A stretch of 5,751 nt of DNA, taken from IMG/VR virus record IMGVR_UViG_2713896788_000030. One strand, given 5' to 3'. The position numbers and the translations under genes were made by a program. Under the pieces are notes generated by a model. The model saw only the letters and a list, made by a program, of their open reading frames with translations. It ran no database searches and was not told the DNA's origin. Below, piece by piece: positions 3,641 through 4,222 of the stretch (positions are counted from its first letter, which is position 1; each line of letters starts with the position of its first letter). This DNA is from a virus (Duplodnaviria; Heunggongvirae; Uroviricota; Caudoviricetes).

Positions 3641-4222
3641 TTACTTGTTTTTGCCATGCTTATCCTGAGCGATAAGTTCATCCATAAGACTGTCTTTCTT
3701 CCCAGCAAACCTAATGTAGCACTCATTTCTATAGCGTTCCGGGATAACAAAACGGTCGATTTCAGGATATCCAGTAGCAGAAGGTACCCGAATAAGAAGC
3801 CCTTTTTCGAGCAATGAGATTGCTTCAGGGCTTCCCTTTTCTGTCTTTAGCTGGTTATTAGCGGCTACAGCGAATGCCAAATACGCTCTTTCTCCAAGAG
3901 TTAACGAATCAAACAAATCTTGCACGTATTTCTCTTCTTTAGATTTGCGCTTCTGAGCAGCGAATATCTCAATTCTTTCAGTCACAGCGTGATAAGCGGA
4001 ATTAACAACGCCGTTAAGCACATAGCTAACGCAAAACAACAGGATGTAATACATCCAGTAATGAGGAAGGATTTCTGGATTATGCAGGTTTATCCATTCT
4101 TTTACGCTTACAGGCATAACAATAATCAATATAATCAGGATGATTAGCATATGAATCAACTGTTTAAGTGTCATTCCTTGCAGGAAAAAATGCATTAGTT
4201 CCTGCCACCATGAGTTGTTCAT
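3641..4222 (-). CDS. sieB: SieB-like superinfection exclusion membrane protein (193 aa); assignment by position and architecture
   Basis: Convergent with N (stops 16 bp apart), as I recall for sieB in lambda and P22. Two strongly hydrophobic N-terminal segments (LIHMLIILIILIIVMPVSV and YWMYYILLFCVSYVL) precede a charged C-terminal domain. A+T-rich. Confidence 0.6.
   Translation of the reverse strand: MNNSWWQELMHFFLQGMTLKQLIHMLIILIILIIVMPVSVKEWINLHNPEILPHYWMYYILLFCVSYVLNGVVNSAYHAVTERIEIFAAQKRKSKEEKYVQDLFDSLTLGERAYLAFAVAANNQLKTEKGSPEAISLLEKGLLIRVPSATGYPEIDRFVIPERYRNECYIRFAGKKDSLMDELIAQDKHGKNK

Follow-up and report, generated by a model that had tools for sequence, protein, structure and literature searches.

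The open reading frame at 3641-4222 on the minus strand is, on sequence grounds, very probably the sieB superinfection-exclusion gene of the prophage VT1-Sakai, an orthologue of P22 sieB that lies between lambda-like flanks. It was found in a 5,751-nt stretch of DNA from a virus of the Caudoviricetes (IMG/VR record IMGVR_UViG_2713896788_000030), referred to here as the window, whose sequence matches at 100% identity that of AP000400, the record of VT1-Sakai; this phage is the Stx1 prophage of Escherichia coli O157:H7 Sakai. The finding is ordinary and the gene is already known and publicly annotated, the AP000400 entry at the same coordinates (BAB19611.1) reading 'sieB, superinfection exclusion protein B, similar to bacteriophage P22 SieB'. 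An earlier note, made from the letters of the window alone, had described a SieB-like gene as a candidate; the likeness to SieB stands, while the candidate status gives way to that of an established, annotated gene. What comparison adds is mildly new: a possible structured antisense element, a cassette role that the element would have for variable cargo, and a predicted winged-helix domain in the protein.

The reading frame opens with an ATG and encodes 193 amino acids and a stop codon on the strand opposite PL, as the earlier note had stated. A homology search against SieB-family profiles gave a significant match to Pfam PF14163 (SieB; E=1.1e-25, 90.4 bits against a curated cut-off of 26), which spans residues 24-164 and profile positions 2-144 of 147. 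The same frame matches PHROG 1301 (E=6.4e-124), and the protein database holds 118 homologues from Escherichia, Salmonella, Citrobacter, Yersinia and other genera. Because of these matches, the frame can be taken as a real gene rather than a chance one. It is intact and of full length, with family members ranging from 192 to 195 amino acids, and many phages and E. coli genomes carry a copy that is identical or at least 99% identical. At no less than 80% of its length, the segment 3625-4345 is present in 577 of 5,426 complete E. coli genomes, with the annotation super-infection exclusion protein B. No PADLOC model matches SieB or the neighbouring ORFs.

The sieB, esc and sas module of P22 is reportedly the subject of work by Susskind et al. 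in 1974 and by Ranade and Poteete in 1993. In a tblastn search of phage genomes, P22 SieB, an experimentally characterised protein, is 84.8% identical to the protein of the window over residues 1-191 of 193 (E=7e-97). There are only three amino-acid changes in the first 80 codons, and the 15% of residues that differ lie mostly in the C-terminal domain, including 21 of the 48 codons in residues 141-188; the target specificity of the two proteins may therefore differ. The loci also have in common the promoter sequence, the Met25 codon at which P22 Esc starts, the sas region and a place convergent with N or its analogue (gene 24 in P22). Unlike P22, the window belongs to a lambdoid Stx1 prophage of E. 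coli O157:H7 with lambda-like flanks and without ral upstream, and its homology to P22 ends at 4328.

On the downstream side, sieB converges with the N antitermination gene (3352-3624, plus strand; Pfam N_peptide, E=4.8e-17), which is annotated as N in AP000400. The 16-bp spacing between the two stops that had been claimed is exact, as N ends at 3624, the sieB stop codon occupies 3641-3643 and the gap covers 3625-3640. The same convergence of sieB with an N-type gene is seen in lambda, P22 and three distant loci. The flanking DNA (N, the upstream block and ea10) is lambda-like on both sides of sieB. At the 4328/4329 junction, the conserved block jumps straight to lambda-like sequence upstream of ea10, and ral and orf28 are absent; in lambda these genes separate sieB from ea10, and in P22 and HK140 they adjoin sieB.

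The claim that PL read-through would be antisense to sieB also holds, in that no terminator-like site is found on the plus strand between the N stop and 4435. The first such site after N on the PL strand, called by consensus scan at 4435-4456, is a strong hairpin of the terminator type followed by a T run, and its sequence recurs in lambda just upstream of ea10 with one base different. On the minus strand, a terminator-like hairpin that matches the consensus lies at the start of N (3309-3333) and could end sieB transcripts after their antisense passage through N.

The SieB of lambda (lambdap48, 34482-35036) has in common with that of the window the Pfam family and the position and orientation beside N. 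The two proteins are only 27% identical, and tblastn at 1e-5 gives no link between them; the allele of the window is accordingly of the P22 type. Lambda also encodes RexA and RexB, a prophage-expressed system with a membrane protein that aborts superinfecting phage. RexA/RexB and SieB occupy the same immunity-region neighbourhood, but they have no sequence relationship, and RexA/RexB has two components and shares its transcription with cI instead of having a promoter of its own directed against PL.

Elsewhere in the window, the rexA/rexB position, between cI and PL, holds two unrelated ORFs on the plus strand. The first (2000-2281) encodes 93 amino acids, is unannotated in AP000400 and belongs to PHROG 12039 (E=7e-65); the second (2288-2839, H0053) encodes 183 amino acids with a hydrophobic C-terminal segment and belongs to PHROG 12602. 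Pfam and PADLOC give no match for either, and the pair is presumably the other defence candidate of the earlier note. The ori iterons, repeats of the CCCTC-N-TTT-GAGGGA type, lie at 38-160, and a masked run of 50 N at 224-273 follows them inside the O gene.

Predicted architecture of SieB

The description of the product as a membrane protein agrees with two hydrophobic segments that pass on the Kyte-Doolittle scale (19-residue window), one at residues ~19-40 with a peak of 3.03 and one at residues ~53-76 with a peak of about 1.5, and with helices predicted there by AlphaFold. The most conserved part of the family, encoded at 3995-4168 on the minus strand, comprises two predicted transmembrane helices (residues ~19-38 and 53-76) joined by a short loop. 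A basic stretch, QKRKSKEEK, follows the second hydrophobic segment and suggests, by the positive-inside rule, that the C-terminal domain is cytoplasmic and, by symmetry, the N-terminus too.

The AlphaFold model was built on an alignment of 24 sequences and has a mean pLDDT of 80, with low values in the membrane part (56-68) and values of 88-95 for residues ~100-180. It contains an N-terminal helix (4-16), a helix at 19-35 and a long helix (56-105) that continues the second membrane segment, followed by a compact alpha/beta domain at residues 109-172 (3707-3898, minus strand). This globular C-terminal domain, modelled at high confidence, is predicted to be winged-helix-like, its nearest folds being those of the winged-helix proteins TubR, Rio2, MarR and ArsR, and on the model it can tentatively be called a winged helix. 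Foldseek gave no match of the SieB model to the PDB at E<1e-3, and the SieB profile found nothing below E=0.3 among PDB sequences. SieB would thus sit in the inner membrane with its N- and C-termini on the cytoplasmic side, and two N-terminal transmembrane helices and a long helical stalk would lead to a C-terminal winged-helix-like domain.

Family members hardly differ in their first 75 residues, and identity falls to ~20-40% in the C-terminal domain. Because the membrane module is near-invariant and the C-terminal domain varies, the latter may act as a sensor or specificity domain and the former as an effector. We infer this division of labour from conservation; the predicted winged helix goes beyond the existing annotation.

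Putative promoter, Esc start and sas region

The sieB promoter had been expected somewhere in 4223-4300. That range holds a putative equivalent of the P22 promoter at 4289-4259 on the minus strand, identical at 31 of 31 positions to the feature 'promoter, sieB RNA start site' of the P22 record OQ031658, a curated entry that also annotates the SieB CDS and an Esc CDS starting 72 nt inside it. The likely -10 hexamer is TAAACT (4264-4259, minus strand), and the other loci have TATAAT, TAAAAT or TAATAT at this position. From the place of the hexamer, transcription of sieB would start near 4252 and leave a 5' UTR of ~30 nt. The promoter equivalent is a weak sigma-70 match and is not called by a sigma-70 consensus scan.

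The same P22 annotation lends support to the suggestion that an internal start could yield an Esc-like product. SieB has internal Met codons at residues 10, 17, 25, 36, 57 and 180, and the one that corresponds to the P22 Esc start, Met25 (ATG at 4150-4148), is kept in at least 90% of aligned family members and is preceded by 20 nt that are the same in the window and in P22. The putative Esc reading frame runs over 3641-4150 on the minus strand and would encode 169 amino acids, missing only residues 1-24 of SieB and retaining both membrane helices. The 15 nt before Met25 contain no obvious Shine-Dalgarno sequence.

A known counterpart also exists for the remark on antisense transcription, namely the sas RNA of P22, whose sequence is conserved in the window. 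When aligned with the P22 sas read sequence from a 2026 small-RNA sequencing paper (PMC13397905), 4218-4328 on the plus strand is identical in 107 of 111 columns, with three mismatches and one gap. The first part of this sas equivalent (~4218-4252) is complementary to the start codon, the ribosome-binding region and the 5' UTR of sieB, and the remainder runs on upstream of the sieB promoter. In lambda, the start-codon region differs from that of the window, and so the mRNA-pairing part of the antisense RNA differs too.

A consensus scan found no convincing sigma-70 promoter on the plus strand just upstream of 4218. A promoter-like site at 4107-4135 on the plus strand (10/12) was weighed as the possible promoter of sas and discarded: such sites number three in the scan against 2.9 expected by chance, the P22 equivalent is weaker by eye (CTTACC / TACGAT), and the start would fall 76 nt upstream of the P22 sas 5' end.

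The region also contains a direct repeat, CUGUAGGGGU(G), with a first copy at 4243-4254 (plus strand) in the inferred sieB 5' UTR and a second at 4277-4288. Lambda and P22 keep both copies, as do loci with a SieB of 40-52% identity. Base pairing around the first CUGUAGGGG copy, within the 5' UTR, would give another hairpin, but its register differs between loci and it was not counted as supported.

The conserved block upstream of sieB

Adjoining sieB is a non-coding block of ~110 bp that is conserved in lambda, P22 and three loci with a SieB only 40-52% identical. About 75 bp of it in lambda, with the promoter and hairpins, is nearly identical to the sequence of the window. A related-locus search gave only relatives at least 91% identical, and diverse loci were gathered through a 19-nt motif of the block, TACCCCTACAGNGAGAAAT, which is present in at least 120 viral contigs. 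A covariance model of two hairpins finds one copy per locus, at 90-120 bits, in 44 diverse loci; in the window the match is at 4226-4335 (plus strand; 118.8 bits). Besides the window, the element is seen in lambda (L002), P22 (L003), three further loci (L007, L008 and L010) and 38 viral contigs.

The genes that follow the block vary. They include P22-type SieB, lambda-type SieB and two further types of the SieB family as defined by Pfam. In six loci (L107, L121, L154, L169, L192 and L205), the block precedes an unrelated soluble protein of 160-189 amino acids, a zinc-ribbon protein with two CxxC motifs that falls in PHROG 1244, a family with no function assigned. In one contig (L203:749-1138), a second and weaker copy of the block lies directly before an ORF for a coiled-coil protein of 92 amino acids, which makes a tandem arrangement with the sieB cassette. 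This place looks like a hotspot for swapping lysogen-expressed genes.

Within the block, three helices can be proposed on the plus strand. In hairpin II (4272-4294), TCTCG (4272-4276) pairs with CGAGA (4290-4294) around a nearly invariant loop, CUGUAGGGGUAC. It is followed by two interleaved helices with covariation at 4295-4326. Helix B joins ACCAC (4295-4299) to GTGGT (4310-4314), and helix A joins GCCUG (4303-4307) to CAGGC (4322-4326). Helices A and B would be parts of one H-type pseudoknot, in which the third loop is rich in A, or else would represent two alternative folds.

The comparative support differs among these helices in how the alignment was made. For hairpin II and helix B, the alignment had been built to fit the structure and so favours pairing; in it 96.5% of cells are paired for hairpin II (46 sequences), with two of five pairs changed on both sides, and three of five pairs are changed on both sides for helix B; in the covariance-model alignment of the two together, 92.6% of cells pair and five of ten pairs are changed on both sides. 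None of 500 shuffles reaches the observed values, and slid controls give 24-53% pairing. The arms of helix A were placed by sequence anchors alone, the 3' arm on a GG[CT] motif, MAFFT having misaligned that arm. On the plus strand, they pair fully in 46 of 46 sequences and show two compensatory double changes. There are also three single changes, and all three give a G.U pair on the PL strand and a C.A mismatch on the sieB strand. This strand asymmetry, together with the P22 reads, points to the PL-direction RNA (sas) as the structured strand.

The minimum-free-energy fold of 4218-4344 includes hairpin II and helix A. As a single sequence, this segment folds no more stably than its shuffles (z=-0.69), and the case for structure is therefore entirely comparative. 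In Rfam 15 (E<=1), no family overlaps 4218-4335. A single match in the window is credible, that to Lambda_thermo, the cIII RNA thermometer, at 4911-4969 (plus strand, 88.5 bits), as expected for a lambda-like cIII.

A structured antisense element next to sieB is plausible but unproven. In the fullest form of this reading, which is held tentatively, 4226-4335 on the PL strand may be a structured RNA without an Rfam family, made of the CUGUAGGGGUAC hairpin and then an H-type pseudoknot, which could serve as the scaffold of sas and as part of a portable promoter-plus-antisense cassette placed before varied lysogen-expressed cargo in lambdoid phages. The main alternative, which is rather unlikely, is that selection has kept 4259-4328 solely at the DNA level, for its promoter and for protein-binding sites, and that it forms no structured RNA. 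It would account for the sieB promoter lying inside the block and for the invariant TACCCCTACAG at the -35 position, which could be an activator or repressor site, and it agrees with the shuffle-like folding stability and with the fitting of the hairpin II and helix B alignment to the structure. However, it does not explain why the anchor-placed arms of helix A pair in every sequence and show two compensatory double changes, why each of its single changes keeps a G.U pair on the PL strand and not on the other, or why the P22 small-RNA reads cover exactly the same stretch on the same strand.

Superinfection exclusion in P22 and, by analogy, in VT1-Sakai

In P22 lysogens, SieB is expressed. Superinfection by a sensitive heteroimmune phage, lambdoid or P22-like, then leads to arrest of macromolecular synthesis in the middle of the lytic cycle, and the infection aborts; P22 itself is insensitive (PMC10461980). 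Esc, encoded in frame within sieB, inhibits SieB (PMC3224144). According to PMC7067206 and PMC12197685, the antisense RNA sas acts as a translational switch between SieB and Esc. An infecting phage with the module makes sas, translation shifts from SieB to Esc, and the phage escapes its own exclusion. A literature search found no exclusion experiment (plating or burst) or other experiment on the VT1-Sakai allele.

Since every element of the module is near-identical, the P22 mechanism can be carried over to VT1-Sakai, whose allele would by analogy be expressed in the lysogen, exclude superinfecting phage and produce Esc and sas. PL transcripts would be antisense through the whole of sieB, and their 4218-4328 segment would correspond to sas. 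The simplest mode of action for Esc would be to join SieB in mixed oligomers that are inactive.

It is very improbable that sieB of VT1-Sakai is instead an inactive relic that keeps the SieB sequence without exclusion, like many genes of the resident prophages of O157. Although the loss of ral and orf28 beside sieB indicates a rearranged region, the frame is intact at a length typical of the family, its identical or nearly identical copies are widespread among phages and E. coli genomes, and hardly a base has changed in the promoter, the Esc start or the sas region. Least probable of all is a mainly regulatory locus, in which convergent transcription of sieB and PL together with the antisense element modulates N or the PL operon and the protein is secondary: the close convergence of sieB and N, the minus-strand hairpin at the start of N (3333-3309) and the conservation of the RNA-like block even before non-SieB cargo would fit it, but the protein sequence is strongly conserved across genera, and P22 genetics ties the exclusion phenotype to the SieB polypeptide (PMC10461980, PMC3224144).

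The reading of the locus as a probable exclusion module of the P22 type is retained. The analysis confirms, as far as conservation with P22 allows, a complete SieB/Esc/sas module of this type in the Stx1 prophage of O157:H7 Sakai, which carries little weight as a discovery. The module could shape which lambdoid phages, other Stx phages included, are able to multiply in these lysogens. The predicted winged helix and the findings at the RNA level give concrete starting points for work on the sensing of infection by SieB and on its regulation.
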